Below are positions 3,213 through 60,431 of a stretch of 64,000 nt of DNA, one piece after another. The stretch's first letter is position 1. Each line of letters opens with the position of its first letter. The notes beneath the pieces are model-generated. The model was given only the letters and a program-made list of their open reading frames with translations, was not told the DNA's origin and made no database searches. This DNA comes from Caerostris darwini (taxonomy: Eukaryota): the NCBI GenBank assembly GCA_021605075.1, contig BPLQ01015363.1, forward strand, positions 963,513 to 1,027,512, written 5' to 3'. The position numbers and the translations under genes were made by a program.

Positions 3213-3236
3213 TATATATATATATATATATATATT
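3211..3236. repeat. (TA)n microsatellite abutting the right end of Tc1-A. Similar (TA)n tracts occur at 1991–2003, 6829–6850 and 52257–52284.
   Basis: The repeat is directly visible in the sequence. Confidence 0.9.
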
Positions 3237-34564: not shown

Positions 34565-35848
34565 ACACTCATGTCCATAAATTAAGGATAATGAAGTTCA
34601 GGCAAAGAAAGAGACAGAAGCAAAACAAATTTGACTTATTTGTAAAGTCTATTTATTAAACAAAAGGTAAAGAGCAAAACAGATGCTATATGTTTGACAT
34701 AATTAATAAAAATTGCGATTTTTACTCCCTGGAGCAAATTTCAAAAAAGAACCTATTTACAAAAAACAGTATAACATGGTTAGTATGATGGTTAATATGG
34801 AGTATGTCTCCCGGACGATGCAATACAGGCCTTACAACGCCTAGGCATGCTGAGTATCACATTATCAATCTGATCTTGGGGAATATTACACCACACATCA
34901 AGCAATGCCCTCCGAAGTTCCGGTTGACAGGTGGGAGGGGGTTGACGGGCTGCAATTCGTCGGCCAAGCATATTCCACACATGCTCTATTGGATTCAAGT
35001 CCGGTGAGTATGCTGGCCATTCCATACGGGTGATATCCTCCAATTGAAGGCATTCGTCTACAGTGTTTGCACGGTGAGGACGGGCGTTGTCATCCATAAA
35101 CCTGGTGGTAACGGGTACCTGGCGCTCTCCATATGAAAGTCCGGCGAGAATCAGACTGCAAACTAAACCTGGACTCGTCGGAAAACATCACACCAGACCA
35201 CTGTTGCGGTGTCCACAATGCATGCTCTCTACTCCAGGTTAATTGCAGGCGACATTGAGTTGCGGTAAGTGGAACACATCTGACAGGCCTACGAGCATAT
35301 AGACCAATGTGCCCTAAGCGTCTGTACACGGTCTGCTTTGAAACTGTCGTACCGGTAGCTGAAGAGAGCGAACGAGACAGGTCTGATGCTGTGCTCCGTC
35401 TGTTTCTTTTGGCAGTAACTGCTAAATACCGGTCCTCATTCAGCGTTGTAACTCGGGGGCGACCTGTGCTGTAACATCTACTCACGTTACCATCATCTTG
35501 GAATCGTTGCCAAAGCCTGGAGATGACACTCTGGGCGATTCCAAGTTCCTCGGATACTTCCAGCTGGGTACGTGCACATTCCAGTCGTCCGATAATTCTA
35601 CCACGTAAAAAATCATCCAAATGCGTTTAAAGCGCTTGTGAACAATTTTACTTCTTTGCCACCATTCCTTATATACCTCTCTCTAACACTCTCGTCATTG
35701 TGACGTACTATCCGCGCCATATGGTGGTTTCATGTAATTTGCATATTCTTCTTCAAGATGTGTGTGATAATTCTACAGGTGAAATTTTTATTTTAGAGTT
35801 CAATTTCTGTGTGATTCTGAATTATCCTTAATTTATGGACATGAGTGT
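34565..35848 (-). mobile_element. Tc1-like DNA transposon, family B (DD34E). This is an internally deleted copy with a TA target-site duplication.
   Basis: The 28-bp terminal inverted repeat TACACTCATGTCCATAAATTAAGGATAA is present at both ends. TA dinucleotides flank it at 34563–64 and 35849–50. Transposase fragments lie between the repeats. Confidence 0.85.
34792..35620 (-). pseudogene. Tc1 family B transposase remnants, comprising an N-terminal HTH portion (35090–35620) and a C-terminal catalytic portion (34792–35097).
   Basis: The remnants read …LEVSEELGIAQSVISRLWQRFQDDGNVSR…VMFSDESRFSLQSD… and MDDNARPHRAN…WPAYSPDLNPIEHVW. About 190 bp is deleted relative to copy C between RAPGTRYHQ and FMDDNARPH. 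The initiator ATG is lost (TTG). Confidence 0.8.
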
Positions 35849-41891: not shown

Positions 41892-42483
41892 GTATGTTTT
41901 TGTTGTAATTAATTTATTAAAAATTTCGTATTCATGTTTTGTTTTTAAATATTTACTAGCTATAGATAATATTTAAAAAATTTTATAATTGGTTAAACAC
42001 CATACTTCATTTTACATTACTGAATACTTGATGTATGCTACTTTTTGAATATATTATTTTTTTTATTAATTTTTTTTTTTTTTTTTTTAAATTAATATGC
42101 GTTCTTTCACTAATGGTCAGACTATATGAAGATATATTTGAAGATGTATAAATTTAAAATTCACATGTTATTTTAATTATCATAAATATTTAAATACTTA
42201 CTCTTCATATATTATACTCATTAATAATTTATGAGAAAACCATTTTTCCTTTTTATATATTTTGCATGTCCTCCTTTGTTGTTAACTTTTCTCATTGAAA
42301 AATAGTATTTAGTGGATGAAAAATTTTGTGAGAAAAATAATTTTTAATAATATAGAATTTGTTCATATGATTTGATCATCAGTCATTATAATTATTTAAA
42401 TAAGGTATTTAATAAAGCTAGCTTCACTTAGTCAATCTATGCTATTTGTGCTCAAGATAGCTAATGTTTACTTTTAGAATAAT

Positions 42484-42779
42484 GGGGCCTGATGGTTCAG
42501 TGGCTAACACTCTGGCGCTCGGTTCCACAGGTTTCGGGTTCGATTCCCGGTGGGGCCATGGATGTTTGTAGTGGTTCGGAGTCCAATTTAAACCGTAGGT
42601 CCCGGTCTAATAGTACCGTAGAGCGTTGTGGGGGGGTAGTGTTACTCACGTCTGTAGCATATCTTCAAGCTATACGTGCTCCTGGGTAGTGTTAAATGAG
42701 TAACAATGTTGCAGTCCTTGTTTATTGCATAAAGATTAACTGTCTCTGTATTGCCAGCTGCATTGGAACAACAACAACC
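42484..42779 (+). mobile_element. tRNA-derived SINE, copy A, lying in intron 21.
   Basis: The tRNA-like head carries A box TGGTTCAGTGG and B box GGTTCGATTCC. The conserved core reads CCATGGATGTTTGTAGTGGTTCGGAGTCC…GTAGGTCCCGGTC. It is flanked by an 11-bp direct repeat tttagaataat (42473–83 and 42780–90). Confidence 0.8.
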
Positions 42780-43014
42780 TTTAGAATAATAATATTGAAT
42801 CTAATAACTCGAATCTCTATCCACAACTTATAAGTGAAAAATGATAAAGTATAAATTCCTTCTTAGCATTAAACATATATATTTTTATACCCTTAAGTTT
42901 GTCTTGTTTTCCAACTGAAATTGCGTATCAAAACTTTTTTAACAAATTTGTACTTATTAGTCATGTGTTTATATTTAATTTTTTTGAGGTTAAATAAATG
43001 AGTTTGTTTTCTAG

Positions 43015-43116
43015 ATTCATGATGATTCAATTACTGGCATTTCAGTCGCTGGTTTATATATATTTACAAGCTCTTTAGACAAAACTTTGAAAGGATGGGA
43101 TACTACTCTAAACCAG
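43015..43116 (+). CDS. WD40 gene exon 22.
   Basis: The exon follows acceptor gtttgttttctag and ends at donor gtactt. The ORF reads IHDDSITGISVAGLYIFTSSLDKTLKGWDTTLNQ. Confidence 0.7.
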
Positions 43117-43588
43117 GTACTTGAAAACTTTGGTTTCTCATTACTTGTCTTTATTTGTGCATAGTTATGGTTTTTAAAAATTTATTTCATTTCAGTTATT
43201 TTTACATATATTTATTCGTCATTAAAATATGCTTAAAAATGAGGTCATAACTAATTTATATACATTTGTATTAAATTTTTAAAGTAATTTTCAGTTTAAA
43301 TTAATGTAATTTTTAACATTCTTCAGTAAGTGGTTTTATATATATTTACTCCTATTTTAAAATTGTTAAATTGTATGTAAATGCACGTAATAGTTAAAAG
43401 ATAAATCTCAGTTTCTCTCTTCAACCACCTTTTAAAATAATAGCCTGCCACACTTTTTTTTTCAAGAATATTTAAATTGCTAAAAACTGCTTTAAAATTA
43501 TTATTTAGAGTTTTTATTGGGTATAGTTAATAATTTGTAAAATAAAAAGGGATTACTATTTAAACTAAATGTTTTCATTTATTTATAG

Positions 43589-43735
43589 GTGTGCCAGTTT
43601 CATTCATCTGTACCTATTACTAGTCTTGTTGGATGTAAAGTAATAATTACTGAATCCTTTTCTACATATATTTTGCTAATTGGAACTTCTTCAGGAACTG
43701 TTCAATTATTGAAATTCCATGATAAAAGAGTTTAA
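43589..43735 (+). CDS. WD40 gene terminal coding exon (stop TAA at 43733–43735).
   Basis: The exon follows acceptor ttcatttatttatag. The ORF reads VCQFHSSVPITSLVGCKVIITESFSTYILLIGTSSGTVQLLKFHDKRV followed by the stop. Confidence 0.75.
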   Translation: MCQFHSSVPITSLVGCKVIITESFSTYILLIGTSSGTVQLLKFHDKRV

Positions 43736-44400
43736 AATTTTTGTTCTTCTAATGAAAGTGAATTCTGTTAAAAAAATTCATATTTTCTTAATTTTGCTTT
43801 GTATTAGTATTTTTGATTGTTTTTGTCTGATTTTAGTGTGATAATGCTACATTCCTATCTAATAAATATTTAAAATTATTTTGTTCTTTTTTTATTTAAT
43901 TAATTGTTATAAATGTGTAGATGAGGGAAAATGTACAAATAAATAGTTAAATAGGCATTGTTTGTGAAATTATTTGTATGTAACTCGAATATAATTTAAG
44001 AGGTAGGTTGGTCATTCAAGAAACTATTGTAGTTTCTATTTATTTTATTCTTAATTAATTAAGTCTTCATTAATTTTTGGTTAACAAAAATCTATTCATT
44101 TTATTAAGTAAATGAAAGTGAAATTATTTATTTTTTCATAAATCTAAAATAAACTACTTAATAGTCTAATGAGAAATCAAAAATGAAAATATTTGTAAAT
44201 TAAGTTGAAAATAAAATGCTAAGTTATGTTAATCTAAAAATATAATTACTACATTAATAACAAGTTATTTAGAAGACATTTTTTATGCTTAACTTGATGA
44301 CAGTAGAAATAAAATAAATCATTCTTGTAAATCTTAAAATATCATACTGAAACTGGTGATTTTCACTAGGTGTCAATTCAGTTTTCAAAACTATAGTTGT
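43736..44400 (+). other. 3' UTR and downstream flank of the WD40 gene.
   Basis: This region lies between the stop codon and the start of the repeat nest, and contains AATAAA at 43861. Confidence 0.4.
43861..43866 (+). promoter_or_regulatory. Probable polyadenylation signal (AATAAA) of the WD40 gene.
   Basis: An AATAAA hexamer lies 126 nt downstream of the stop codon. Confidence 0.45.
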
Positions 44401-44899
44401 AAACAAATGATTTAAAAAAGTATTTTTGATATATTTTCATAGTTGTATGCAGTAAGTATAGACAGAGTTATCCCTTGCACATTTAGGGGAAATGTAAAAA
44501 GTAAATTAAAAATTATTAAATTCAAAAATTAAAATCAACCATAGTTCAGCACCTCAAATATATCGAAAGATAATTAACCTCAGTTAATTAACTTTTTGCA
44601 AATGGGAAAATCCCTCCTAATGGGAATGAATGGATTTTCTCTGTAATAATTAAAGAGTTGATTGATGTCTTGAATAGACAGATTACAGGTAGGATTGTTC
44701 ACTTTGTGCATTAGTTATTAATTGACAAGAAATAGCATCTGTATCTCTGGGGTTGTCTGGGAACTGAAGAATGGCGCTTTGAAGTAGCTTCCATTGGTTC
44801 TTATTTTAAAACTGTTTCATGTGATATTGTTGAACTATTTATTGATTGTTAAGTTAACTATCCTATGACAAATTTACCAAGAATATTGAACTAGCAGTA

Positions 44900-46100
44900 A
44901 TTCTTTCTGCTATCATATCTGTAATTTATTTTCCAGGAATATCTATTAAAGAATGCTAATAAACATTTTTTGGCTAATTTGTCTAAAATGGATTTGTATT
45001 CCATGTTAAATGTAAAATGCAGAGATTTTTCCACGTTGCATTGGCCCTGAGAATCAAATTAAATGATTGATTAAAAAGGTCAGTTGTATGCATATAATGA
45101 TGGAAAGAGATCACAGTAAACATCTGCTAATTATGTTGTATTCCATTTTTATGAATATTAAATCAAGTTCTAAAGTATAAATTGTTTTTATACCAGGAAA
45201 TAAGACTTCTGTACATTTCTGTGACTTAGAAATAAGACTTTACATAACTAGGTGCTTTGAGATTTATACTCGTGCAAGCTGCTTTATCTCGATGTATCCA
45301 ATTACGCTTAAGAAGAATGTGTTTTAAAATATTCTTATTATATATATAGATGCTATTTTTGGGAGAAATCAAATTGAAGATTATTGTATCTGGCACGGGT
45401 TTTGCTAAAGAATCTGCTAGTTCATGTTTTGTTATGGCTTACGTGACATGGAGTTCAGACAAATTCTAAAGATAAAATTGAGTTCTAGTTTTTTCTTAGA
45501 TGATCTTCTAGAAGTTTGAAAATTACAGTTTTAGAGAAGAGAGAGACTATCTGATAAAATAATGTAGTTGTGCTTGGAATACAAATATAGTGATTGATTA
45601 AATCAGATCTAAACTAACTTTATTTTTCCATTCTTCTTCATGTTAAAAAATGTTCTTGGCTACATGATGTGGTAGTTGTTTATTCTGGAGGGGTAAATCG
45701 TCTAGGTGAAATGAAATTTTACAAATTGGATGCAGATTATAGGAAGGAGGAATATTTAAGTTTTTCAAAAGGTTAGCTAAAAAAGTCTGAAAGGAAATAG
45801 GATACTTCAGAGCAGAATAATCCTCAAATCTGAGTTATTTAAAAGACAGCGGAGGTTGGCTCGAAAGAAATTTGTTTTAGAAAAAGAGTTCAGATCTGGT
45901 CAGTTTCTTTGTATGACACTGGAATGGGAGTCTATTTGGAGACCTGTTGCGAACCGTAAATCAAGATTATACACTGTTGTGAGATGTTGGAGATCGCTGT
46001 GACGAGAGGAAATAAAAATAGGAGAACCATATTCCAGAATGCTACAAATAATGGAGTTACTATTCTGACGAGAGGGCAAGAACGTCAACCCCAAAATTTA
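44900..46100 (-). mobile_element. Degraded 3' half of a non-LTR (LINE) retrotransposon ORF2.
   Basis: The minus-strand ORF 45900–46094 reads …ICSILEYGSPIFISS…LQHLTTVYNLDLRFATG…, resembling the post-RT motif (…YG.PVW…L..VQN.A.R). Minus-strand translation of 45392–45427 gives HELADSLAKPVP, resembling the RNase H NE.AD.LAK motif. Confidence 0.5.
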
Positions 46101-46308
46101 GAAACTGTTGCTTTAATGGCATGTAGTTTAATAACTTTTTTTTTAATGTAAGAAACCTGTTGCTTGAAGTTGAGATTATGCGATAAAATAAGAACAAGAT
46201 GTTGTTTCTTGGAATATTAATGTTGTACATTTGCTGTGGTCTGTTTTGATCTTGAGTTCAAACATGCCTAATAACACATCTTTTGTTTGCAAAAATTAAT
46301 TTCTTCGC

Positions 46309-46309
46309 T

Positions 46310-46348
<39 letters not shown>

Positions 46349-46358
46349 CCTTTTTCTG
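46309..46358. repeat. Poly(T) tract of about 48 nt.
   Basis: The tract is directly visible. It lies between the two RT fragments on the minus strand, where it reads as poly(A). Confidence 0.9.
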
Positions 46359-46386
46359 CTTTAAGAGTGAAATTGCAAGTGTTACA

Positions 46387-46599
46387 TCATTGTGAGATCT
46401 TATGAAGTGATATTTGGAGATTTGATCCAGATATTATTAAAAACTCGTAGTTGTTAAAGATAGTAGTTGGGAGTATTTTGATAAGTTTGGCTGGAATACC
46501 GTCATTTCCAGGTGAGGTATTGGGAGTAAATTTAATTGCATCAGTGAGTTCAACGAAAAAAAAAGGATTATTATAATTGTGAGAGGAATCTTCAGACAA
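46387..46599 (-). mobile_element. Non-LTR retrotransposon RT N-terminal fragment (RT domain 0/1).
   Basis: The ORF reads …FTPNTSPGNDGIPAKLIKILPTTIF…, resembling the LINE RT motif SPGPDGIP..(F/L).K. Confidence 0.6.
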
Positions 46600-47221
46600 G
46601 TTTAAAGGAATAAAATGTGTGATAGAGGAGGGGGGGTATTATTCATCAAGAATTTCTTCTTCGCGGTTCCACTGTGATTGGAGAATTCTTCAAAGATGTT
46701 TTGAAACGAATGCAGCATTATTTGCTGGACAGTGGAAATTACTGTCGCTTGAAAGCTTTACAAGTCCATCTTGTATAGCAGTTTTTGGCGAGAAGGCAGG
46801 ATGTATATTTTATTTACTTTCCCTCTGCTTCCCACTCCTAGAATATTTTTTTATTTCCCAATTTGAAATTGAAGATGAAGGGGTGGCAGTATGAATCGAT
46901 AGAGGAGATTGAAGAGTCGCTGACGTCGAGACTCAATAGCGTTGGAGGCGTTTACGGACCTGCACATTCGTTTCAAGCATTGTATTGAATTGGAAGGAGA
47001 CTATGTAAAAGCTTAATATCAAATTTAAGTATATCATCTGTGTTATGTGTTCTGTATGTGATCAGTCCAAAACCTTTTTGAATACACAGTTATTTTCTAC
47101 ATTGCATGTTTTTTGCATAGTTTTTGCTATGCTCATAATCATTTAAAGAACATGGAAAATTTGATTTCAATGCGACTCATTTTATTGTAATTATTCTTCA
47201 CTTGAAATTGGTTTGAATTTT

Positions 47222-47760
47222 GATGGGAATATACATATAATTCTTCACTGTTTGTCACTGAACTCCTAAACGGCTGGACCGATTTTGATAAAAAAATTTG
47301 TTTGAATGGGTTTGAATCGATTTTGATAAAAAATGTTTCAGTGAGTTCCTGGATGTTTTAGATTAACAATTGGTCCTGGTAGGTGGCGCTGCAATCGCGA
47401 TAATACTTCTGTACGTGTGTTTATTACTGAACTCCTTCTAAACGGCTGGGCCGATTTTGATGAAATTTTTTGTGTATATTTGACAAAACATGGAGAATGT
47501 TTTTATGCTATCCCCATTGTTGTAAGTCACCATTAGATGGTGCTGCAATATATAAATTTCTATACCGTTCAACCAATCGCTATGAAAATTGGTAATAAGA
47601 TGTATTCGAGTATGGAAAATATGTTCGCCCTATCCACTTTATTGTTATTTGCCACCAAATGGTACTGCAGCATTTCATCTTATATGCCATGAAAACTAGT
47701 ATGCACGTATATCGGAACATGAAGAGTTATATTGTCTGTGAGTATTTATGGTATTCCTGA
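47222..47760. repeat. Tandemly duplicated units within the LINE debris.
   Basis: The unit actgaactcct(tc)taaacggctgg(a/g)ccgattttgat occurs twice (47260, 47430). A ~110-bp unit (…ctatcc.c.ttgttgt.a.t..ccacca.a.atggt.ctgca…) occurs about 2.5 times at 47380–47720. Confidence 0.6.
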
Positions 47761-47989
47761 AAAATAGAGGCCTGAGCCTGACTTTCTTTAACAAGTTGTA
47801 GAGTTTCCAAGACTTATTGCTAAATAATTTTGTAATTTCTTTGTAATATAATTGAAAGTAGTGCCAGTTTTTAATTTAGATGAAAAAGTGTCTCTTTTTC
47901 GGGGAGCGATATAGTCTCTGAGCTTCAACAAAAGAAGCAAAAAGCTTCAAGAAAATCCATTGAGAATTTTAAATTTTAGAAAATTTTCT

Positions 47990-48606
47990 TCTGCTTTACG
48001 TTTAGGACAATTAATGTCTGTGGCATTTTGATTTGCACTACAGTATTTGGGGATTTTGGCCGAGCACGATTCTATGGAATGTTGACAATACAGTATTCAC
48101 AGGCAATTGAATTTTAACAATTTGCTGTTGGACGAGTATATGAATGACATTTTTTACACTGACGAGGTTTATCATAAAACAGAGCAATTTTTTGTTGTGT
48201 TAACCATAATAGGACATCATCTGGCAAAATCATACCTAAAGTAGTAACTAAAACTGGAGTGGAAATGGTAGGCGTTGTCCGTTTTCCTGCAAATCTGCGA
48301 AGTTCTGTGACGGAGAAGTTTTCTTCTTCTAATTCCGTTACAAGTTCAGCGAGTGATATATCTGTAGATATACTATGCAGTAAAATCTGATAGAGATTTT
48401 TTCAGGGTAAAGGGAGGCCTTGATTGGAAACCCAGGATGGCTTTCATGATTCTTAGTTCTCTTGCGGTTTCAAAATGGACAGTTGATAAAAGTAGTTTTC
48501 CATGTCTAGTAATACACATATAATCAATATGTTTTAAGGTGGGGATTTTTGAAGCTATGTTGAGAACTCTGGGATGGGCTTTCGGTATTGCGCCGTTTGG
48601 AACTTC
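47990..48606 (-). mobile_element. gag/ORF1-like repeat unit, copy a, from a non-LTR retrotransposon. This is the best preserved copy.
   Basis: Minus-strand translation gives EVPNGAIPKAHPRVLNIASKIPTLKHIDYMCITRHGKLLLSTVHFETARELRIMKAILGFQ… followed by …ISTDISLAELVTELEEENFSVTELRRFAGK…PVLVTTLGMILPDDVLLWLTQQKIALFYDKPRQCKKCHSYTRPTANC and …NCPKRKA. It is homologous to copies b and c. Confidence 0.6.
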
Positions 48607-50135
48607 ACAATGATGAATGAACGAGCTCAGTGTTGATATGCTAATTATAAATTAAGAAAAAAGTCACGAGAAAGCATAATAAATAAAGTCTGAGTATATT
48701 TATAAGTAAGGTCTGAGATCTGGCGTCTGAACTGTAATCCATTAAATTAGTATTAGCGGTGATGTCCGCCATGCCAATCTCGAAACCAGTCCACATTAAG
48801 TGTAGGAACTTCTTTAATTTACATGAATTGAGAAATAAGTTAACAAAAAAATATAATTGAATAGGAAATACAGGTGACTTACCTGAAAAGACAAAATAAA
48901 TGAAAAAGGATCAAATACACTATTTTACCAGGATACCTTGACCCAAAAACTAAAAGACAAACCGAGAAAAAACTAAATCAAACTACTCAAAACTCACTAA
49001 TCAGTTTTCTCTCACACACAATATATGCTGTATTCATGTGTTGATTATGAATGCTGTATGTTATTCGCCATTTTAGGACTTTTCATTTCGTTTCTTAAAA
49101 TTGATTAAAAAAAATATGAGAACTTCTGAGAGGGAAGTCATTCGATTTTTCAGATAAAAGGTTTGCTGTCAATGTCAAATATTTGTCTGAACTATCATGA
49201 ATTGGAAATATATTTTGGTAAAAGTGTGATTTGAAAATACAACGTAAAAGTCTGCAAAAAATCTGTTGATATTCATACCAGCAATTGATTTTGAGCATCG
49301 AATTCATTCGAAATTTTATTGTTGGTTCAAGAGCATACATCAGAAGAATGGTGTAATAACTTGAGATGGCTCTTACAAAACAGTAACGAATAGAAAAATT
49401 GCACGAGAAAAGTTTGGTTGAAAATTAAACCAGGCAACCGATTACGAGAATTGGAGGATTTAGAGGGAATTGTAGAAGTTATTGAAAGCCTTCATTCAAG
49501 TAAAAAAATAACGCGGCTAGAATACTAGCTGAACAGTAGATTTTTATAGACTGTGAAACGAAGCTAAACAAATTTTTTAAATTAAAGTTAGGAATCGTAC
49601 TCCAAGCCCATTAATATCTCCAACAATGCTGCCTAAGGAACGACTATATTTTTAGAATATTGGAAAGATTACAGGTGATGAATCCGAAAGTGCTGGCAAA
49701 GCTCCCTTTTACAGTTAACCATCTCTACTATTTTGTAAATCCAGAGAGCACTGCATATACATAAGGTATCAAGAGACTACGGGGATCATCCAAATAGTGG
49801 ATCAATAAGTACTGCAGCAAGATTCTGCATCATTACTATACGTATCTTGCGGAATTCATGTGGAGAAATAAGGTTGGTCACATCTACTTTGATGTCATTT
49901 GAAACCAAACTGTTGCCCACCGGAAGTTCATAAAAAGTAGTACAAATAGTACAAATATTTTGACTGCATTCTTCACGATATATATTATTCACACTTATGA
50001 CAAAAACCGCATTACATTCTGATATCAATGATTGCGGTCCGGTTGACGATTTTCATTTCAAAGCTATTCGCGATATTCAAACTAATCTACAGATAGCATT
50101 TCAACATGGCTCACGATCTTTTACTTTTGTTCTCG

Positions 50136-50760
50136 AGGTTCCCAACGGCACAATTCCCAAAGCACATCCAAAAGTGCTAAAAGACAAAATTTCTTCCAAA
50201 GTAACTACTTTAAGATACATCGATTATATGCACGTCATCAGACAAGTTAAATTACTCATATCCACAGACCATTTTGACACTGCCCATGAATTGGAAAATA
50301 TGAAGGCTCTTATAGGTATCCCAATATCAATATCCCTTAACTCGATTTCTTCTTCACAACATCTCTACTGATATACTCCTAACAGGCCTTACCAAAGAAT
50401 TGGAAGAAGAAAATAATTTTTTAGTATCAGAACTAAGACTATTTTCCTGAAAACGAAATAAGTCTTTCTTATTCACACCTGTCTTAGTAACTATTTTGGG
50501 AAAAATTTTACCAGCATACATCAGATTATGACTCACACAACAGAAAATATCCTTATTTTTCTATAAACTCTGTCAATGCTTAGATAATGTTACTCTTTCA
50601 CGCATCACACAGCTAATTGTAAAAACTCCGGTTACATAAGAAATTTGCAGCGCTCAACATTCCACAGATTCATGCTCAGTCCTATTTACCAAATGCACTA
50701 ATTGTGGTGAGGAACATAGGCACAGACAACAACTGCATTAAACGCAAAGAAGAAGAAATA
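50136..50760 (+). mobile_element. gag/ORF1-like repeat unit, copy b. It is degraded and embedded in LINE-like sequence spanning about 49990–51200.
   Basis: ORF 49997–50371 reads …FVLEVPNGTIPKAHPKVLKDKISSKVTTLRYIDYMHVIRQ…. A degenerate knuckle KCTNCGEEH lies downstream. Confidence 0.55.
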
Positions 50761-51227
50761 CTTCTAAATTCAAAACACTCAACCGCCTTTCTTTTAGAGA
50801 CAGCTGCATACTTTATCATATTCAAAAGAACTGCAAACTGATACTTCTTTATCTACCTATTATGTTACAGAATACGAAATAACTCAATTGTTTAAACAGA
50901 ACGCCTTTGAAACCCAACAAATGATTAGAAAAATCTATCAAACACAAGCTTCAGTTTTCCACGCTTCCATTAAAACTTCTGCATGAAAAGCTTTTGCATC
51001 TGCCTTTCCCTCCTCTACCAAGCAATAACGAATCTATTAATATTAATATTAAGCAATAATGAAACTATCTACTCCCACCAAGTACAACTCCAATAACTGG
51101 ATTGAAAGATAAAAGAAAAAATATTAAAAACAAAAATTGACTACTAGGACACAATCGTATCAAACTTTACAGTTCCTGGTATTCAATTTTTAATCCTCTT
51201 TTCTTATCATAAATGATTTAATAACTT

Positions 51228-51300
51228 ATTAAATCGTTTAAGATAAGATAATTTAATAAAACAATGGATAATTTAATAAAACAATAGATAATTTAATAAG
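51228..51300. repeat. Short tandem repeat (gataatttaataaaacaat)n, about 3 copies.
   Basis: The repeat is directly visible in the sequence. Confidence 0.7.
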
Positions 51301-52255
51301 ATTATTTAATAAAAAATGAATTTATTGTTAGAACTAAAAATGAGATAGGTTAATAGCTGGATAAAAATGAGATAAGTTAAAAATAGCTGGATTTCTCAGA
51401 AATTAAAAAAAAAAAAACTCTTTTTAATAAGAACATGAAACATAAAGAAACTAAACAAATCATAGCTTTTATGTGCTTATGGGGATTTGTTAAATTTTTT
51501 AAAACAAATTGCAGTTTATTTTTATGAGGCTTTGAGTAATGCTTTTACGGATAATAGATATTGGGGTCGTTTATTTTGTTTACTTTTTATTACCGAAAAC
51601 AGTCGCAAACACTTTTTATTACAGTCTGCAGCCGTAAAATATAAAAAAGGAAGCGTTTTAGGTTTTCCTGTTCTTTTCTACTTTTCTAGTACTTTTTTTA
51701 GTTGCATTCATAAAACATTCAAGATGAAAAAATAGTTTTGCAACTTATTATATATACATTTGTTAATATTTTGTTTTGAAGATAATTAATATATTCTCAA
51801 ATGTTATTAAAGAAAAATTGAGAGTTTATTAATATATTAATATTTGGTATTCATTTTGCATATATTTTCTTGATTTGTTTTATAATAAGGGTATTTACAA
51901 TAATATAAAAAATTATTAATATGTATTTGGGATTCTTTATATATATAAACGTATAAATATGTAATATATTTCGTGTATTCGCCAAGGCGACTTGCTGTTA
52001 TTGGTAACCATAGGAAAATACCATGCGCACTAATACATTTACATCGCGTAGTGAGTGATACATGACTTTCTCATTCGAGAATTGATATTGTTATTTATTT
52101 TGTTTAAAGATTTTTTTTATCCCTTTTGTCTTTTACTTAGTTTGTCTTTTCAATTTTCTTTTCTCAAAGTGGAAGAGCGTTTTCATTTTTATTTAAGTTT
52201 TCATTTAATCACAGGCCACTACATATAAATATAATTTAATAATTAATTTTAAAAG

Positions 52256-52288
<33 letters not shown>

Positions 52289-52500
52289 GTATAGGTCTGC
52301 CTTGTTAATTTAACGCTTATTATGTTTTTTTTATTATTTAAATAAATAAATATAAAATACAAAATTTTAAAATAAGTATTAAAATGGCTATAAAACTGGA
52401 TAAAAATGGCTGTAAACCGGATATGACGTCGTACATTTTCTCTCGCATTTTTCTCGAAAACTATGGGTCGTAGAGGTAACAGTGCAATAACCGCATAGTT

Positions 52501-53528
52501 ATGGTACAAAGGAAGCATTTGGATGATTTTTTACGTGATAGAATTATCGGACGACTGGAATGGGGACGTACCCAGCTGGAAGTATCCGAGGAATTCGGAA
52601 TCGTCCAGAGTGTCATCTCCAGGCTTTGGCAACGATTCCAAGATGATGGTAATGTGAGTAGATGTTACAGCACAGGTCGCCCCCGAGTTACAACGCCGAA
52701 TGAGGACCGGTATTTAGCAGTTACTGCCAAAAGAAACAGACGGAGCACAGCATCAGACCTGTCTCGTCAGCTCTCTTCAGCTACCGGTACGACAGTTTCA
52801 AGGCAGACCGTGTACAGACGCTTAGGGCACATTGGTCTATATGCTCGTAGGCCTGTCAGATGTGTTCCACTTACCGCAACTCACTGTCGCCTGCAATTAA
52901 CCTGGAGTAGAGAGCATGCATTGTGGACACCGCAACAGTGGTCTTGTGTGATGTTTTCCGACTAGTCCAGGTTTAGTTTGCAGTCTGATTCTCGCCGGAC
53001 TTTCATATGGAGAGCGCCAGGTACCCGTTACCACCAAGAGAACACCATTGAACGACACGGTTACGGTGGTGCAGGATGGCTTGTTTGGGGAGGAATTATT
53101 CTTGGTTCCAGAACTGACCTGCATGTTCAGAGTGTAACGATGATAGGCCACATCTATCGGGATGTCATTCTGGAACAACATGTACGTTAGTTTCGGGCTC
53201 CATGGGTGCTGAATTTCTGTTTATGGATGACAACGCCCGTCCTCACCGTGCAAACATTGCAGACGAAAGCCTTCAATTGGAGGATATCACCCGTATGGAT
53301 TGGCTAGCATACTCACCGGACTTGAATCCAATAGAGCATGTGTGGGATATGCTTGGCCGACGAATTGCAGCCCGTCAACCCCCTCCCACCTGTCAACCGG
53401 AACTTCGGAGGGCATGGCTTGATGAGTGGTGTAATATTCCCCAAGATCAGATTGATAATTTGATACTCAGCATGCCTAGGCGTTGTAAGGCCTGTAGTGC
53501 ATCGTCCGGGAGACATACTCCATATTAA
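52501..53528 (+). pseudogene. Tc1 family B transposase, inactivated.
   Basis: An in-frame TAG follows VMFSD (ccgacTagtcc in this copy versus ccgacGagtcc in copy B). There is a frameshift before …MGAEFLFMDDNARPHRAN…SPDLNPIEHVW. The D-to-E spacing is 34 residues by my count. Confidence 0.8.
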
Positions 53529-53549
53529 CCATCATACTAACCATGTTAT

Positions 53550-53830
53550 TATATATTGGGCCTGATGGCTGAATGGCTAGCGCTCTGGCGTTCGGTACCA
53601 TAGGTACCGGGTTCAAATCCCGGCTTTGCCATGGGTGTTTGTAGTGGTTCGGAATCCGCTTTAAGCCGTAGGTCCCGGTCCTGTTAGGATCGTAGAGCGC
53701 TGCGGGGGCATTGTTACTTCGCGTCCGTGGCTTACCATCAAGTTACACGCGCTCCCTGTTTAACATCGTAACATCGGTGCAGCCCTTATGGCGAAGATCA
53801 CGGTCTATTTGCCTGCTGCATTAGAAGGAA
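53550..53830 (+). mobile_element. tRNA-derived SINE, copy B, inserted into the 3' UTR of Tc1 copy C.
   Basis: It belongs to the same family as 42484–42779. It is flanked by a perfect 14-bp target-site duplication, actaaccatgttat, at 53536–49 and 53831–44. The orthologous position in Tc1 copy B (34740–34800) is uninterrupted. Confidence 0.85.
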
Positions 53831-54244
53831 ACTAACCATGTTATACTGTTTTTTGTAAATAGGTTCTTTTTTGAAATTTGCTCCAGGGAGTAAAAATCGT
53901 AATTTTTATTAATTATGTCAAACATATAGCATCTTTTTTGCTCTTTACCTTTTGTTTAATAAATAGACTTTGCAAATAAGTCAAATTTGTTTTGCTTCTG
54001 TCTCTTTCTTTGCCTGAACTTCATTATCCTTAATTTATGGACATGAGTGTAAAAAGGGGAGGTGAAAGGGCCTCATAAGTGGAATAGCCGAGGGCCTCTT
54101 TTCATCTAAATCCGGCCCTGGCTGTATTAGATGAAGATTCTGAAAGGAAAGCATTAAAGCATGGGTGGCCAACCCGCGTCCCGCCTTGAATATTTTTCCG
54201 GCCCGTGAGATTTATCACACTCTTACAAATATATTTATTTTATA

Positions 54245-54720
54245 ATGGCCAAAGTAGTGAAAACAGCTGCTTTTGAAAGCCGATTCACAAATTTAGAGTT
54301 AGACAAATACAACAAAATTTTTGAAGTATATTCATCTCCTTTTCATGTTGAAATCGAATCGGCCCCAGAATATTTCCAAATGGGACTGGTTAACTTACAA
54401 TGCAATATTGAATTGAAAACATTTTTTAAACATCAGAATCAAAAATAAATTTTATAACACTTACGTCACAAAAGAGAAATTTTCCAATCTGAAAAATCTA
54501 GCACAAAAAGTTGTTAGCACTTTTGGCTAAACTTCCACCAGCGAATCGGATTTTTTTTCCCCCGTTCGAAAATGAAATTGACCAAACTCAAAACACATTC
54601 AAACATAATGGACGCTAACCTACCACACCAATTAGGATGTGGAATACCCAAATTGTTGAGGTCGATTTGCAGAAGTCAAGTGAAAGAGTGGAGGAACAAA
54701 TATCGCACTAGTAAAATAAA
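54245..54720 (+). mobile_element. Fragment of a hAT-superfamily (Charlie/ZBED-like) transposase C-terminal dimerisation domain, degraded.
   Basis: The fragment reads …SPFHVEIESAPEYFQMGLVNLQCNIELKTFFK… followed by …FSNLKNLAQKVVSTFG, then …MKLTKLKTHSNIMDANL…. This matches the hAT C-terminal pattern NPF.V…P…Q.ELI.LQ.D..LK..F…YP.L…A..L..FGSTY.CE..FS.M..IK.K.R..L. Stop codons and frameshifts are present. Confidence 0.5.
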
Positions 54721-55379
54721 TATTTTTTTAATGACTTCATTTTTTTCTATTTCATTTATATTTATACAGTTTTTATATTTCATTTTTTAGTGTTATATAT
54801 TTCTTTTACAATGTGCTTTTAGTATCATTATTATTATATTATCTATGTTCACATGTTAGAATAGTGATAACTTATTATGTTTCAATTTTTCACTCCGAAA
54901 AATGTCTATAGAGGGTATAAATCTAATATGGGAATATATAATTTTATATGCAGCCCGCGTAGTTATGATGCATTTCCAAAATGGCCAACGAGATCATTTG
55001 GGTTGGGGAGAGAGAGAATTAGAGAATTTGACGAATTGTCTTGTCCAGTTTAAAAGAGAAAAATTAAGAATAGAAATAGAGACATAATTATTTTTCTTTA
55101 TTTTATATTTATTTAAAGTTATTATTATTATTATTAAAAGTAATAAAATAATTGCGAGAAACAGAGCAATTAAAACAAAAAGAGAAAGTAAAAGAAAAGA
55201 AAAGAAAAAAAAATTAAATTTATTCATATAATGCAAGAACAAATTATTTAAGCATTAAATTATTTAAATATTTTTATTTATTTATTTTACGTATTAATTA
55301 ATTAAAAGTTATTTAAAAATCTAAACAAGGAGAAAAAAAACAAAAAAAAACTGTAAAAGGCAATTCGCTGAGAAAGTCG

Positions 55380-55690
55380 CAGACTCACAAGTTGAAAAGA
55401 CTAAAGGCTCGTTCCCACCGCAGCGTGAAGCGTTGAAGATTCATGCGGCAGGCAAGAGAATTTTTTCGACCCCTTTCAGAGCGAAACGTCGGAAATAGCA
55501 TTAAGCCTAGTGAAGTTCCGCTTCGAGTTCAAAGTTGGTCAACTCGAAACAGTGAATTTCAAACCGGTTTCAGGCGAACGTGGCGAGGCTAGTGATTTGT
55601 CAGCGCTTCTCGTTTAAAGCCTCACCTCTCGGTGGGAAGGAGCCTTAACTGGAGAGAACGGAATGGGTGATACAGTCAGTGTCTTTAACA
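55380..55690. other. Unassigned GC-balanced segment with 15-bp complementary ends. It may be the divergent 3' module of the adjacent minus-strand SINE, or a structured-RNA-derived repeat.
   Basis: GGCTCGTTCCCACCG at 55415 is complementary to CGGTGGGAAGGAGCC at 55625. The segment is contiguous with SINE copy E and has no protein-coding signal. Confidence 0.25.
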
Positions 55691-55858
55691 GAAGTGGGGG
55701 TTTGGTTTGGTTTGTCGCTCTACGGTCATCTTGTGCACACGAGGGCTAAACAGATCAGGATCTACAGTTTAAAGTGGATTCCGAACCACTAACATACATC
55801 CATGCCAACGCCAGGATTCGAACCTGAAGCCTGTGATTCAATGGTCAATAGTAGTGGG
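55690..55858 (-). mobile_element. tRNA-derived SINE, copy E. The head and core are present and the tail is divergent.
   Basis: The reverse complement reads …ggcttcaggttcgaatcctggcgttggcatggatgtatgttagtggttcggaatccactttaaactgtagatcc…, which is the B box plus the family core. Confidence 0.65.
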
Positions 55859-56789
55859 GGAAACGGATTGAGACATATATACCTTCATATTACACAGTGC
55901 TGCAAATTATAAAGCAGGAAATTTCATTACATTTTTAAAAACATTGTAAAATTTTAAATTTCGTTCAGAAATGTATTTTTATTTCTATCACAGTGTTTTT
56001 CAGGTAAAAAAAAATACATAAAAAAAAATCATTTAATGCAATTTGAATATTTTTTTTATTTACTATTAAATTTACATAATGCAAAAATATACATTACTAT
56101 GATACAACAAACTTATTGAGAAATTTATCATTGCAGATTTTATTAATGTAAAGGATTAATATAACTCAATTTATAAAGTGACCACGAATTATTTTGTTTA
56201 AAACATTCTCGAATTTTTTATTTTATATATAAGAATCTTTCAAGCGGTATATTTTATTAATTTCCATTGATCTTTACTGATGGCTATAAGAAAAATTTTA
56301 CACGTGTAATTAATTAATATGTAAAATTTTATTTGGAAATTTAAAAGAAATTTATTTATTAAGAAAAACGATTTTTATATTAAAAATAAAAGTAACACTT
56401 TTCCTCACTAAATATTTTTTAGTAAAAAAAAATATATTTGTATATTTAATTTTTTTTTTTTTTTTTTTTTGTCAAGTTTGATAATTAGTAGCCACATAAT
56501 CAAAGAACGAGAAGAGTCAGCATTCAGATACAAATATGATCCACTGTCACAATGAACACTTATTTTGATAAACATTCCTAGTTTGCATCAGTTGTATAAA
56601 AATTCTGTATTTATGAAACATTAGTAGAGCATTAAAAAAATATCATAGAATAAACATGAAAAACATAATAGAAATAAATGAAATGAAAGTATTAAAAAAT
56701 TGAGATTAAAAAATAATTTAAATGTCTAGTTACTTCGGATTATCACATATGTAGATTATTTTGTACAATATTTTTGCGACTACAAATTA

Positions 56790-57013
56790 TGTATAGAAAT
56801 AGCCCAAAGTTATTCACTCAGCACTACCTAGAAGGTGCGTATAACTTGAAGATAAGCTACGGACGCGGAGTAACACTACCACAACGCTCTATGATCCTGT
56901 TAGACCGGGACCTACGGTTTAAAGTGAATTCCGAACTACTACAAACATCCATGGCACCACCAGAACTCGAACCCGAAACCTGAGGTACAGAGCCACTCTA
57001 CCATTCAGGCCCT
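56790..57013 (-). mobile_element. tRNA-derived SINE, copy D, on the minus strand.
   Basis: The reverse complement reads agggcctgaatggtagagtggctctgtacctcaggtttcgggttcgagttctggtggtgccatggatgtttgtagtagttcggaattcactttaaaccgtaggtcccggtc…. ORF 56774–56983 lies inside it and is spurious. Confidence 0.8.
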
Positions 57014-57616
57014 GTAAAAAGCTTATTGTCGATAACATTCTTCAGATAATTATTTCTTTAAGCGGAAACACATAACCACTCGGTTATTAGATAGTCAAAC
57101 CTCTACGTCTTCTAATTAACTTTTTTTTAAAGGGGGCATCTAGGAGAAGGACACATTAACAGTCAAGCTTGAGAACGTAAGCAACATTTGGTTCGCATGA
57201 GGTAGATTTGAATTATTGAAAATGCTTTCTTTTTTTATTGAGAAGTCAGTGGATTTAATTTCGCAGCGTTAATCTCAATTTATCCTGTTGTTTTGTTCTA
57301 GGTTTTTCTGGTAATACAGAATTGATTTCCTTTTTTTTTTCTTTGATTTCCACCGTTCAGGTAAGTCACCTGTATTTATTTGCATTTATTTTCAATTTTT
57401 TTTTCTCTGGGTTTTTGTTAACGACTTAATGTGAGTTTAGAAGCCCCAACACTCTGAGTGGGCGAGCTTAGAGTTTTAACATGGCAGATAATAATTTAAA
57501 TTCTAATCTCATGGAATATACCTCCGAAGTTTATCTTACTTTCATTTCTCATCGGGACATAATTTCAAAATTACAAATTATATAGGAAAATGGCGCTCTT
57601 TCCTTTATTTTATTCC

Positions 57617-58260
57617 AGGTTCCGAACGACGCGATACCAAAAGCACATCCCAGAGTTCTAAAGGAAAAGATATCGTCAAAAGTAACTACCTTGAAATATA
57701 TTGACTGTATCCGTATCACTCGACGAAACGAATCCTATCTACTACTCACTTTGATACAGCCAAAGAATTGGCAAAAATAAAAGCCATTAGGGGAGTTCCA
57801 GTCAAAGCATCTCTTTACCCAGAAAAGATCGCCACCAGATTTCTGCTTTATAACATTCCTACAGATATATCACTTGAAGAACTTGCATCAGAATTGGAAG
57901 AGGAAAATAATATATCTGTCACAGAACTCATGCGATTTGCAGGAAAAGGAGCAGCACTGACGTCTTCCACCCCAGTTTTAATTACTGTATTAGGTACAAT
58001 CTTGCCAGAAAATGCTAGATTATGGCTTACAACAAAAAATATCTCTGTTTTATGATAATCCCCGTCAGTGTCGTAATGTTATTCCTATGCTCACCCAACA
58101 GCAAATTATAAAAATTCAATGGCCTGGGAATTCTGCAGCGATAGACATATTATAGGCTCGTGCTCAACTCAAATTCCTAAATGTATCAATTGCAGTGAAA
58201 CACATAAAACCACTGATGTTAATTGTCCCAAACGTAAAGCCTAAGAAAAATTTCTGCAAT
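57617..58260 (+). mobile_element. gag/ORF1-like repeat unit, copy c.
   Basis: The translation reads …VPNDAIPKAHPRVLKEKISSKVTTLKYIDCIRITRR… and ORF 57768–58055 reads …NIPTDISLEELASELEEENNISVTELMRFAGKGAALTSSTPVLITVLGTILPENARLWLTTK…. A knuckle IPKCINCSETHKTTDVNCPKRKA follows. Confidence 0.6.
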
Positions 58261-58379
58261 TTAAGACTTTTAACAGACTTTCTTTCATTGAAGATCGGAA
58301 ACTATATCGCGTTCCGAAGGAAGACTCCTTTCCCTCCAAAGTTAAAGCTGATACTATTTCCAATTTGATTACAAACGAT

Positions 58380-58520
58380 GAAATTACAAAATTATTTCAA
58401 CAGCAAGCCATGGAAACACGAAAATTTGGGCTGAATTCATCCTCATTATGCCCGATCTGCAAGACTCCGGAAACAATTAAACACATTTTTTTGGATCCAT
58501 AAAATAAGTAGAAGCATGAA
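58380..58520 (+). mobile_element. Possible non-LTR ORF2 C-terminal Cys/His motif.
   Basis: The translation …FGLNSSSLCPICKTPETIKHIFLDP* resembles the C-X2-C-X6-8-H motif found at LINE ORF2 C-termini. Confidence 0.35.
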
Positions 58521-60139
58521 ATAAACTGCAAAGTGATTATGGATATAGAGTTCTGATTTACTCTTGGATATTTGATATGCCAGATGATGCTTATTATAAG
58601 ACACAACAGTACTTTAATTTCTACGAAAAATCTAGTAATCCTGTAAGCTATGGGGGTACCCTCACTTTTTCTATCAGAGGTTATTATTTCTTTTTCACTT
58701 TTTATTTCAAGTACTAGTTGTGCTTTATATTTTCTAATTATCGTTCAACTGTTGAAATATTATGGTCTGTTAGATCTGAAGTTTTACCCATTTTTCTTCT
58801 TTTTCAAATTTACTTTTTTTATTTATATTCTTTTGGTTGATAGAAAGTACGAGCAACGATTCTTGTGTTTTAACAGGAATTTGTAAGCCGTCATAAGCAA
58901 CGAATTCAAAAATTCCGAGTTTTAGAATAAAGGTTTCATTTCCACTTTTTAAAATTTTTTTTATCTGTTGTATATTTTAAAAAGCATTTGGATAAATTGA
59001 GATAAAACAGCATCAGCGAGCATACAACTCAAAGTACCAAGTCGCATGTGCTTTAGTAAAAACGAAAACAAAACGGGAAACGAAACTTTTGTAGAAGGGA
59101 ATTCCCCTGATTTATTATCTGTGATAAGGTTTTAAATATAAATTTAACGACCAGACGCAGCTTATCATTTTCGTGTTGAATGTACGCGAAAAGTAGGAAA
59201 AAAAAGTAAATTGCTGTAAGTTAAATTGATATTCTTATTAGTTTTTAAAAATTTATCTTAAACTATTTCATATTGTATTATGTGCACTATTGTTTGTATA
59301 GTATATATTCAAAGTAATGCTATTTCTTTTGCACATTATTTAAACAGAAGAAAAATTGTTCCACATTTACTCTGCATTATAAATTAATCTATTAATGCTA
59401 TTAAAAAAACTATAATTGAAATTTTCTTTGAATTGGTATATAATAACAATAATTCAAATATAATAATACTTTAATCGAATTTTGCAACACTATGCGAATA
59501 AAAACCATTTTTTGGGGGTTTTAAACAATTATTTAATAGCATATTTATTTAATTGTAAAAGAAGTTGTTCTTCGTGTTATTGTAATATAGTAAAAAGTTT
59601 TATTAAATTTCAAGAATAGAATGCATTAATATTTAAATTAGGAATTTATGTACAAAGACTTTCATGTATATATTTAATGAGACATTAAATGAGTTTTAGA
59701 AAGTTTATTAGAAATGCATGTTTTTCAAATTACTGTTTAAATATCAAGTTGAATTAATTTATTACAAAAATGTTCTTAAAATATCTTATATTGTTCTGTG
59801 GATTATAAAAATCTTATAAGATTTATGCTCACTTATGGGCAGTTTTATCTTGAATTATTTGAATAAATTTCAAAATTACTATGCAAGTTATTTGGTTGAT
59901 AAACGAGTAATTTCAGTTTTCACAAAAAATACATTGTAAAAACTGAACATACTTTCTTGTAAGCACAATATTTCATAGTTCAATTTTTTTTAATTTTAAT
60001 TTTTTGAAATTGTAGAATTATTTTTTTGTGTTATTATTTCAACTGAAAATTTTAATATGCTTAAAAAAAAAATTGTAATGCCTCAATTTATTAAAAACAA
60101 TTTTCTCAAAATTTATTATATATGGAATATTAGATAACT

Positions 60140-60431
60140 GGGGCCGGATGGCCGAGTGGCTAGCACTCGGTACCACAGTTTTCGGGTTTGGGTCCCGACT
60201 GTGCCATGGATGTTTGTAATGGTTCGGAACCCACTTTAAACCATAGATCTCGGTCTAATTTTGATCATAGAGCATTGTGGGGGTATTGTTACTCTGAGTC
60301 TGTAGCTTTTCTTTAAGCAACATGCCCCCCTGGGTAGTGCTAAGTGAGTAAAGTCGGTGCAGCCTTTGTTCATGACATAAAAGACGACTGTCTAATATGT
60401 ATTTGCCAGCTGCAGTAGAAACAAAACATGA
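60140..60431 (+). mobile_element. tRNA-derived SINE, copy C.
   Basis: The head reads ggggccggatggccgagtggctagcactcggtaccacagttttcgggtttgggtcccg, followed by the core ccatggatgtttgtaatggttcggaacccactttaaaccatagatctcggtc. The flanks (tagataact and ttgataact) form an approximate target-site duplication. Confidence 0.8.

Follow-up and report, generated by a model that had tools for sequence, protein, structure and literature searches.

Five copies of a tRNA-like repeat in two families

The 64-kb stretch of Caerostris darwini DNA analysed here (the window) contains five copies of a short interspersed element (SINE), which are 152-296 bp long and dispersed on both the + and - strands. A profile built from the five copies and run with nhmmer recovered all of them (E-values 1e-93 to 2.5e-40) and no sixth copy in the window. 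A 30-nt core pattern with up to three mismatches matched four copies, where 100 shuffles gave an expectation of 0.00, and the tail motif TTTGCCAGCTGCATTAGAA matched three copies against 0.06 expected in the shuffle control. The preliminary description had listed the same five copies, with positions that were right to within a few bases. The sole open reading frames within the copies are chance frames, nothing in them being coding, and a search for terminal inverted repeats on the copies found none. An exact protein look-up of reading frames of the window matched no record, nor did its putative WD40 exons, when concatenated, match the protein database searched.

The element consists of a tRNA head, a 53-bp central core (GCCATGGATGTTTGTAGTGGTTCGGAATCCACTTTAAACCGTAGGTCCCGGTC) and a 3' module. 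Four copies (c1, c2, c4 and c5) form a long family of about 290 bp, which ends in TTTGCCAGCTGCATTAGAA and a short A/C-rich run, whereas c3 is the only copy in the window of a short family of about 175 bp ending in GACCGTAGAGCGACAAACC(AAAC)n. Head and core are common to both families, and it is the 3' modules that differ. The subfamilies announced in the preliminary description are therefore present, but its single family of five has to be replaced by two families. Its remark that the tails differ applies to c3 alone, since the three full-length copies c1, c2 and c5 have one tail in common.

Three members of the long family are full length and lie on the + strand. Copy c1 (42484-42779, 296 bp), identified by nhmmer, the tRNA model, the tail motif and its target-site duplication (TSD), has the A box TGGTTCAGTGG at 42493-42503, the B box GGTTCGATTCC at 42537-42547, the core at 42555-42607 and a tail of ATTGCCAGCTGCATTGGAA followed by (AAC)n, and is flanked by the 11-bp TSD TTTAGAATAAT (42473-42483 and 42780-42790). 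Copy c2 (53550-53830, 281 bp), delimited by the alignment of filled and empty sites described below, begins with eight additional bases, TATATATT, followed by the GGGCCTG head, with the A box at 53566-53576, the B box GGTTCAAATCC at 53610-53620 and the core at 53628-53680. Copy c5 (60140-60433, 294 bp; nhmmer and TSD) carries the A box TGGCCGAGTGG at 60149-60159, the degenerate B box GGTTTGGGTCC at 60185-60195 and the core at 60203-60255; its TSD is GATAACT, 7 bp perfect or 10/11 with one indel (60133-60139 and 60434-60440).

The two other copies lie on the - strand. The long-family copy c4 (56804-57013; nhmmer and ARAGORN) is 3'-truncated and has no tail, with the A box at 56993-57003, the B box at 56963-56973 and the core at 56903-56955, and no TSD was found around it. 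The short-family copy c3 (55701-55852; nhmmer, tail and TSD) is 5'-truncated and lacks the A box. It retains a head remnant of the long type with the B box GGTTCGAATCC (55814-55824), followed by the core (55753-55806) and by CCCTCGTGTGCACAAGATGACCGTAGAGCGACAAACC and (CAAAC)n, and its 8-bp TSD is CCCCCACT (AGTGGGGG on the + strand; 55693-55700 and 55853-55860).

The head, about 70 nt long, is a degenerate tRNA with internal A and B boxes. The A boxes have no or one mismatch to TRGCNNAGTGG, and the B boxes (GGTTCGATTCC, GGTTCAAATCC, GGTTCGAGTTC and GGTTCGAATCC), located about 44 nt downstream of the A box, are GGTTCGANNCC or near-matches, with the exception of c5. Since some B boxes are degenerate, most of the copies are probably dead, as judged from these motifs. 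The T-arm stem of the head has retained compensatory changes. In an E-value scan of one copy, the sole Rfam match was a sub-threshold tRNA; the tRNA model aligned to one head over model positions 1-71 with 25.5 bits (gathering score 29), and at the gathering threshold no family was reached and no tRNA was found in the whole window. Sub-threshold scores of this kind are expected for SINE heads. ARAGORN called a single copy, c4, as an aberrant 97-nt tRNA-Arg(tcg) at 56915-57011, and at a relaxed threshold it drew a cloverleaf whose acceptor stem is mispaired, the isotypes assigned (Arg, Pro) being in disagreement. A functional tRNA gene or tRNA gene cluster was rejected on the score, the acceptor stem and the isotypes, in agreement with the original reading of the copies as SINEs that derive from a tRNA and carry A and B boxes.

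Target-site duplications and an insertion into a Tc1 transposon

Copy c2 is located within a Tc1-family DNA transposon (copy B, 52515-54056, + strand), which is 97.2% identical to a second Tc1 in the window (copy A, 34559-35624, - strand). At the target, copy A reads ...CCATCAT-ACTAACCATGTTAT-ACTG... without interruption, the 14-mer occurring once (34771-34784), whereas in copy B the same ACTAACCATGTTAT stands on either side of a 281-bp insert, which is c2, as a perfect 14-bp TSD (53536-53549 and 53831-53844). Because the 14-mer flanks the insert in copy B and is single in the uninterrupted copy A, c2 at 53550-53830 is a precise retro-insertion. The site is also uninterrupted in Tc1 copies of Araneus ventricosus, Trichonephila clavipes and Stegodyphus mimosarum, where the 14-mer is again the stretch in which the alignments overlap, so that one filled site (copy B) can be compared with four empty ones (copy A and the three spider genomes). 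The Tc1 protein of the window is 93% identical to that of A. ventricosus, 88-91% to that of T. clavipes and 86% to that of S. mimosarum, and the corresponding nucleotide identities are 96.6-98%, ~95% and ~89%, values that point to a spider, probably an araneid, as the host. This region of the window is rich in Tc1 elements.

TSDs of 7-14 bp with unrelated sequences flank four of the five copies, including the 5'-truncated c3. Three TSDs of 9-14 bp had been proposed previously; the present lengths are 11 bp for c1, 14 bp for c2 and 7 bp perfect or 10/11 for c5, and the 8-bp TSD of c3 had been missed. Variable TSDs together with 5' truncation are typical of LINE-mediated insertion. Thus, the TSDs and the comparison of filled and empty sites bear out the presence of dispersed, retroposed copies.

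Pairwise identity among the four long copies is 70-78%, below the 75-85% estimated before, and c2 differs from the other copies by 26-30%. The insertion of c2, at least, is little decayed, because its TSD is intact at 14/14 positions and its host Tc1 is 97.2% identical to the paralogue. As c2 is so little decayed and yet this divergent, much of the divergence lies between source genes and does not reflect decay after insertion. The earlier view of an old family is therefore only partly sustained: the long copies are indeed diverged, but c2, with a perfect TSD in a 97.2% identical Tc1 pair, does not fit it.

Conserved core and occurrence beyond the window

By module, pairwise identity of the long copies is 74% in the head, 89% in the core and 69% in the body and tail, and the core, as had been noted from inspection, is the best conserved part. 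Of the 53 columns in the core, 12 are variable, compared with 107 of the 216 outside it (Fisher p = 4e-4), and CpG content does not account for the low variability of the core. The element thus has a central domain that exceeds head and tail in conservation and is common to families with different tails, as in SINEs with a highly conserved domain (HCD-SINEs).

The core holds a T-arm-like hairpin, GTTTG.TAGTGG[TTCGGAAT]CCACT.TTAAAC, whose motif GGTTCGGAATCC equals the B box with one additional base. In the most divergent copy (L012), two compensatory pair changes convert AGTGG/CCACT to AGCCG/CGGCT. RNAalifold applied to head and core suggested that the core pairs differently, but no compensatory change accompanies that alternative. 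It is conceivable, though on balance doubtful, that the core represents a new SINE highly conserved domain, defining a new superfamily in spiders and other animals, and that it may have been kept for its RNA hairpin. If so, the changes in L012 would be rare direct evidence that a SINE core acts through its RNA structure; this hint, which has a single sequence as its basis, touches on why SINE cores stay conserved.

Relatives of the element occur outside the window. The C. darwini predicted protein GIY02518.1 contains a translated head and core of the long type, and a search of proteins with a translated-SINE profile gave seven true matches and two false ones (repetitive bacterial-type proteins); six-frame SINE peptides had no match in a word-indexed protein search. 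A single scan of metagenomes with the core pattern returned four contigs. Nine additional copies of the short family, several with TSDs, were found on eukaryotic contigs of host-associated metagenomes, five of them on contigs of a single sample that add up to 22.5 kb, and the core is present on eukaryotic contigs of at least three metagenome samples. Neither Rfam, nor the protein cluster of an LTR-retrotransposon gag/pol, nor a literature search by sample gave any indication of the hosts of these contigs. Two core patterns had no match in the IMG/VR viral contigs or in the GTDB genomes, and no SINE copy was present in the Tc1-anchored loci of A. ventricosus (63 kb), T. clavipes (21 kb) and S. 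mimosarum (24 kb; 108 kb in total).

Origin and relation to known SINEs

We are confident that these elements are non-autonomous tRNA-derived SINE retroposons of a spider genome, which form two families with a common head and core. Five copies inside 18 kb, one of them called as a tRNA by ARAGORN, might instead suggest tRNA pseudogenes, or a decayed tRNA gene that was duplicated locally together with its flank, in tandem or as part of a segment. This is highly improbable, given that the flanks differ from copy to copy, the TSDs differ in sequence and length, the copies lie on both strands, the homology runs 100-220 bp past the tRNA-like part, and relatives exist on unrelated contigs and in a C. 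darwini gene model. The reading is refuted by the comparison of the filled site with the empty ones, relative to which c2 is a precise insertion. It is equally hard to credit a MITE with a chance tRNA-like segment, moved by a transposase such as that of a nearby Tc1. The Tc1-rich region and the position of c2 inside a Tc1 would suit such an element, but the copies have no terminal inverted repeats, their variable TSDs of 7-14 bp are not the TA of Tc1/mariner, c3 has lost its 5' end but kept a complete 3' end and is flanked by a TSD, and the 3' ends, short A/C-rich or (CAAAC)n, are a retroposon signature. A non-autonomous Tc1/mariner element was rejected for lack of inverted repeats and of a TA duplication.

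For SINE retroposons, a plausible life cycle would begin with Pol III transcription of a source copy from its internal promoter. A partner LINE would then supply the endonuclease and the reverse transcriptase that insert a DNA copy of this RNA by target-primed reverse transcription, which would generate the 7-14 bp TSDs and, at times, 5' truncation. A swap of the 3' module might enable one head and core to use different LINE partners. Dependence on a LINE is suggested by the class of the element. Searches with the tail motifs and a tail consensus found no LINE with a 3' end like either tail in the window, its LINE fragments included, or in ~190 kb of other loci, a sample far too small for exclusion. 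An internally deleted LINE is located at 57.6-58.5 kb of the window, and the sequence downstream of it has no tail match.

The architecture is that of the HCD-SINEs (CORE-SINEs, V-SINEs, DeuSINEs/Nin-DC, Ceph-SINEs and MetaSINEs), which likewise combine a tRNA head, a best-conserved centre and variable 3' tails, join the same head and core to different tails, and have cores common to elements of different genomes. In molluscs, the joining of head and core to different tails has been described as 'mosaic' or 'jigsaw' evolution (PMC4758252, PMC11481361). The spider core differs from these in its T-arm-like hairpin with the loop TTCGGAAT and the motif GGTTCGGAATCC, and the hosts named in the HCD-SINE literature examined include no spider. 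MIR and other mammalian CORE-SINEs also have a tRNA-derived head, a conserved core, TSDs and LINE-dependent retroposition (putative for the spider SINE), but differ in tail and host clade, and the spider core showed no similarity to a MIR consensus in the comparison given below. Among chelicerates, Ruka of ixodid ticks is a tRNA-derived SINE as well, likened here by class and not by sequence, and within the arachnids ticks are distantly related to spiders. Ruka (Sunter et al. 2008) is the sole chelicerate SINE cited in the text of the 2012 SINEBase paper (PMC3531059).

The element is genuine and of a well-known type, and is probably undescribed, to judge by the literature search and the core length. 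That Repbase, Dfam or SINEBase already has an entry for it, as a known SINE family or through a core of the V, Meta, Nin/Deu, Ceph or CORE superfamily, for instance from a curated or automated library for spiders or chelicerates, nevertheless has to be taken seriously, although we consider it somewhat less than probable. Many animals, including arthropods and the chelicerate Limulus, have HCD-SINEs in which tRNA heads are combined with swapped tails (PMC5804259; PMC4824008; PMC11481361), and spider genome papers list RepeatModeler SINE fractions (1.85% in Dysdera, 0.08% in Argiope), so that uncurated models covering such elements may exist. Against this, an exact-string search with six core fragments across 8 million full texts returned no relevant paper, the fragments are absent from the texts of the HCD papers, and no paper on any spider SINE family was found. 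The core measures 53 bp compared with ~120 bp in V, 66 bp in Meta and ~120 bp in Nin, a comparison by published length alone. Alignment of the core with a MIR/CORE consensus gave a Smith-Waterman score of 9 versus a shuffle mean of 9.7, which serves as a lead only.

These SINEs are ordinary selfish DNA and leave the understanding of SINE mechanism unchanged; their main use is in the catalogue of poorly described spider repeats. Unclassified repeats make up 20.5% of the Argiope bruennichi assembly and 22.6% of the Dysdera silvatica genome, and are most of the repeat content of spiders. If the core is new, it would bring a chelicerate example to the few SINE superfamilies that have a conserved central domain. 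A curated pair of consensus sequences could provide presence/absence markers for araneid phylogeny and improve repeat masking and gene annotation, one C. darwini gene model already holding a translated piece of the SINE.

SINE copies and their anatomy

The elements of this window are a real pair of tRNA-derived spider SINE families with directly evidenced retro-insertion and a constrained central domain. The five stretches claimed as SINE copies in the preliminary description proved mutually alignable, and an nhmmer profile built from them recovered exactly these five places in the 64 kb of AT-rich DNA (G+C about 22-28% outside repeats; E = 1e-93 to 2.5e-40). Alignment and nhmmer identified the full-length copies c1 (42484-42779, +), c2 (53550-53830, +; also delimited by a Tc1 interruption) and c5 (60140-60433, +), the copy c4 without its 3′ third (56804-57013, −), and a shorter piece, c3 (55701-55852, −), with a 3′ end different from the rest. 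The 30-nt centre of their core occurs in four copies at ≤2 mismatches versus 0 expected from shuffles, and the fifth carries an insertion of 1 nt at this position.

The first ~70 nt of the element align with the whole length of the Rfam tRNA model at 25.5 bits, below the threshold of 29, and no Rfam family reaches its own gathering score anywhere in the window. This head contains A boxes (TGGTTCAGTGG, TGGCTGAATGG, TGGCCGAGTGG, TGGTAGAGTGG) at tRNA spacing from B boxes (GGTTCGATTCC, GGTTCAAATCC, GGTTCGAGTTC, GGTTCGAATCC), the B box of c5 being degenerate (GGTTTGGGTCC). Because the acceptor stem is mispaired and the isotype calls are inconsistent (Arg, Pro), these are SINE heads rather than tRNA genes, as originally proposed. 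ARAGORN called a 97-nt tRNA-Arg(tcg) at 56915-57011 (−), which corresponds to the head and part of the core of c4 and illustrates how such SINEs can inflate tRNA counts in spider annotations.

Directly 3′ of the head lies a 53-bp core, GCCATGGATGTTTGTAGTGGTTCGGAATCCACTTTAAACCGTAGGTCCCGGTC, followed in long copies by a ~170-bp body terminating in TTTGCCAGCTGCATTAGAA plus a few bases rich in A and C; a motif scan of the window found TTTGCCAGCTGCATTAGAA in the three full-length copies only. Copy c2 starts with eight extra bases, TATATATT (53550-53557), ahead of its GGGCCTG head, which are absent from the other two full-length copies and may represent a source-gene 5′ leader (upstream Pol III initiation) or an untemplated addition.

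Retro-insertion into a Tc1 transposon

A repeat finder identified 34559-35624 (−) and 52515-54056 (+) as two copies, A and B, of a single Tc1-family transposon whose alignment is interrupted precisely at 53550-53830. Pairwise alignment showed that copy A carries the empty site CCATCAT-ACTAACCATGTTAT-ACTG, and copy B the filled site, in which the 281-bp SINE c2 lies between two identical copies of ACTAACCATGTTAT, a target-site duplication of 14 bp without a mismatch. In this Tc1 from Araneus ventricosus, Trichonephila clavipes and Stegodyphus mimosarum the site is likewise uninterrupted, with alignment blocks overlapping by the same 14 bp. Thus, the filled/empty site pair shows that c2 is an insertion.

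Other target-site duplications are TTTAGAATAAT (11 bp), GATAACT (7 bp) and CCCCCACT (8 bp, around the 5′-truncated c3). Taken together, variable duplication lengths, truncation at the 5′ end, 3′ ends of simple A/C-rich sequence and missing inverted terminal repeats are what LINE-mediated target-primed reverse transcription characteristically leaves behind, and on these same grounds an origin as a DNA transposon or by segmental duplication was rejected.

Tc1 copy A lacks an internal stretch of 182 bp that is present in B (B 53037-53218), and copy B contains an in-frame stop at 52963-52965 as well as frame changes. The reconstructed transposase is 93% identical to that of A. ventricosus, 88-91% to T. 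clavipes and 86% to S. mimosarum, with DNA identities of 96.6-98%, ~95% and ~89%, respectively. These values place the window in a spider, most likely an araneid or a near relative, an assignment that horizontal movement of Tc1 could blur. The high DNA identity to the A. ventricosus and T. clavipes copies suggests that the element either was active in araneids very recently or was transferred horizontally. A second, different Tc1-like transposon at 1981-3237 has a DDE_3 domain with an FMDDNAPCH motif and is bounded by ~52-nt inverted repeats (1981-2032 and 3186-3237); either end carries (TA)n.

Two families with a constrained core

A core scan of JGI metagenome contigs matched four eukaryotic contigs, one of which also carries LTR-retrotransposon gag and pol. 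Their ~175-bp element consists of a tRNA-like head, the same core and then CCCTCGTGTGCAAAAAATGACCGTAGAGCGACAAACC(AAAC)n. The tail of this short family runs ...GACCGTAGAGCGACAAACC(AAAC)n, and that of the long family TTTGCCAGCTGCATTAGAA... Since c3 (55.7 kb) has exactly the 3′ module of the metagenome element and a head remnant closer to the long-family head, the genome of the window holds both long and short SINE families. The earlier view of one family with diverged tails was therefore correct as to the shared head and core, but the 3′ module of c3 marks a second family. The motif CGTAGAGCG just 3′ of the core is kept in both. One head and core combined with different 3′ modules matches the modular "mosaic" pattern reported for SINEs whose central domain is highly conserved (PMC4758252, PMC11481361, PMC5804259).

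An exhaustive profile search with a SINE-frame peptide yielded more short-family copies, and one JGI sample held five in 22.5 kb of contigs, several with target-site duplications. The eukaryotic contigs L008 and L013 (JGI 3300013871, Ga0181466) carry the short SINE at about one copy per 4-5 kb. Gene calls on the Ga0181466 contigs treat TGA as sense, and the recorded protein products of L008 and L013 are therefore artefacts. L008 is 99.9% identical to ENA contig ERZ27311415, so one host was sampled twice. The profile search also found a translated long-type head and core, AEWLALWCSVPQVSGSNSGVAMGVCSGSESILNH, at residues ~80-114 of the predicted protein GIY02518.1 of the spider Caerostris darwini, reflecting either SINE exonisation or an annotation artefact of unmasked repeats.

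The four long copies (c1, c2, c4 and c5) are only 70-78% identical overall, lower than the 75-85% initially estimated. By module, identity is 89% in the core, 74% in the head and 69% in the body and tail, with 12 of 53 columns variable in the core versus 107 of 216 elsewhere (Fisher p = 4e-4), a difference for which CpG density does not account. Post-insertion decay is expected to be uniform along the element; the extra conservation of the core therefore implies that a large share of the divergence accumulated between source genes with a constrained core. Copy c2 is 26-30% divergent from the other copies, and its duplication is undamaged (14/14) within a Tc1 copy 97.2% identical to its paralogue A. 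This combination is consistent with divergence between source genes. Hence, the description of an old family holds only in part: there are distinct subfamilies, and at least one insertion, c2, shows little decay.

Within the core, a hairpin of 11 positions is possible, GTTTG.TAGTGG-[TTCGGAAT]-CCACT.TTAAAC, which resembles a tRNA T arm, its motif GGTTCGGAATCC being a B box with a single additional base. In the 13 copies compared, 93.8% of cells are paired. Compensatory double changes occur at two pairs, both from the most divergent copy (L012) alone. This level of compensatory change was also reached by 11 of 500 shuffles, and the alternative fold from RNAalifold pairs equally well with zero compensatory changes. 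These predictions hint at, but do not prove, an RNA structure within the core.

Full-text literature searches, both with fragments of the core and for papers on spider SINEs, returned nothing relevant, and the core showed no similarity to a MIR consensus, a comparison that gives a lead only. It is plausible that the families are unclassified, and most likely the pair is an undescribed example of an already known kind of element. No SINE copy occurs in 108 kb sampled from A. ventricosus, T. clavipes and S. mimosarum, a sample too small to judge presence.

Other features of the window

A LINE ORF1-like segment is present in three diverged copies, at 48117-48651 (−), 49964-50700 (+) and 57586-58500 (+). 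The last leads straight into a weak match to zf-RVT (58245-58499), which gives it the look of an internally deleted LINE. Decayed reverse-transcriptase-like fragments at 45900-46640 (−) lie beside a ~40-nt poly(T) run (about 46311-46350). None of these segments or fragments shares a 3′ end with the SINEs, and no partner LINE matching either tail was found among the window's LINE fragments and the fetched loci.

At ~13430-14260, a ~830-bp block with G+C of ~45-50% in AT-rich surroundings starts with a T run of 20-odd nt (about 13430-13452) that reads as a poly(A) tail on the − strand. Pfam and Rfam gave no match for this block, which looks like another retroposed sequence or a processed pseudogene.

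Short WD40-like exons are spread across 10436-41912 (+), including VLKGHRHIVSCCCADYSSNILLSSGWDNSVRLWSL at ~10.5 kb and further ones at 20.5, 25.2, 27.2, 31.3, 36.3, 38.6 and 41.7 kb. Their arrangement suggests one putative host gene with very long AT-rich introns; the concatenated exons returned no homologue from the protein database. Immediately 3′ of the last of these putative exons, the SINE cluster begins. Two 66-nt inverted repeats (986-1051 and 1237-1302), 76% complementary and separated by 185 nt, may represent a foldback or a small MITE-like element.
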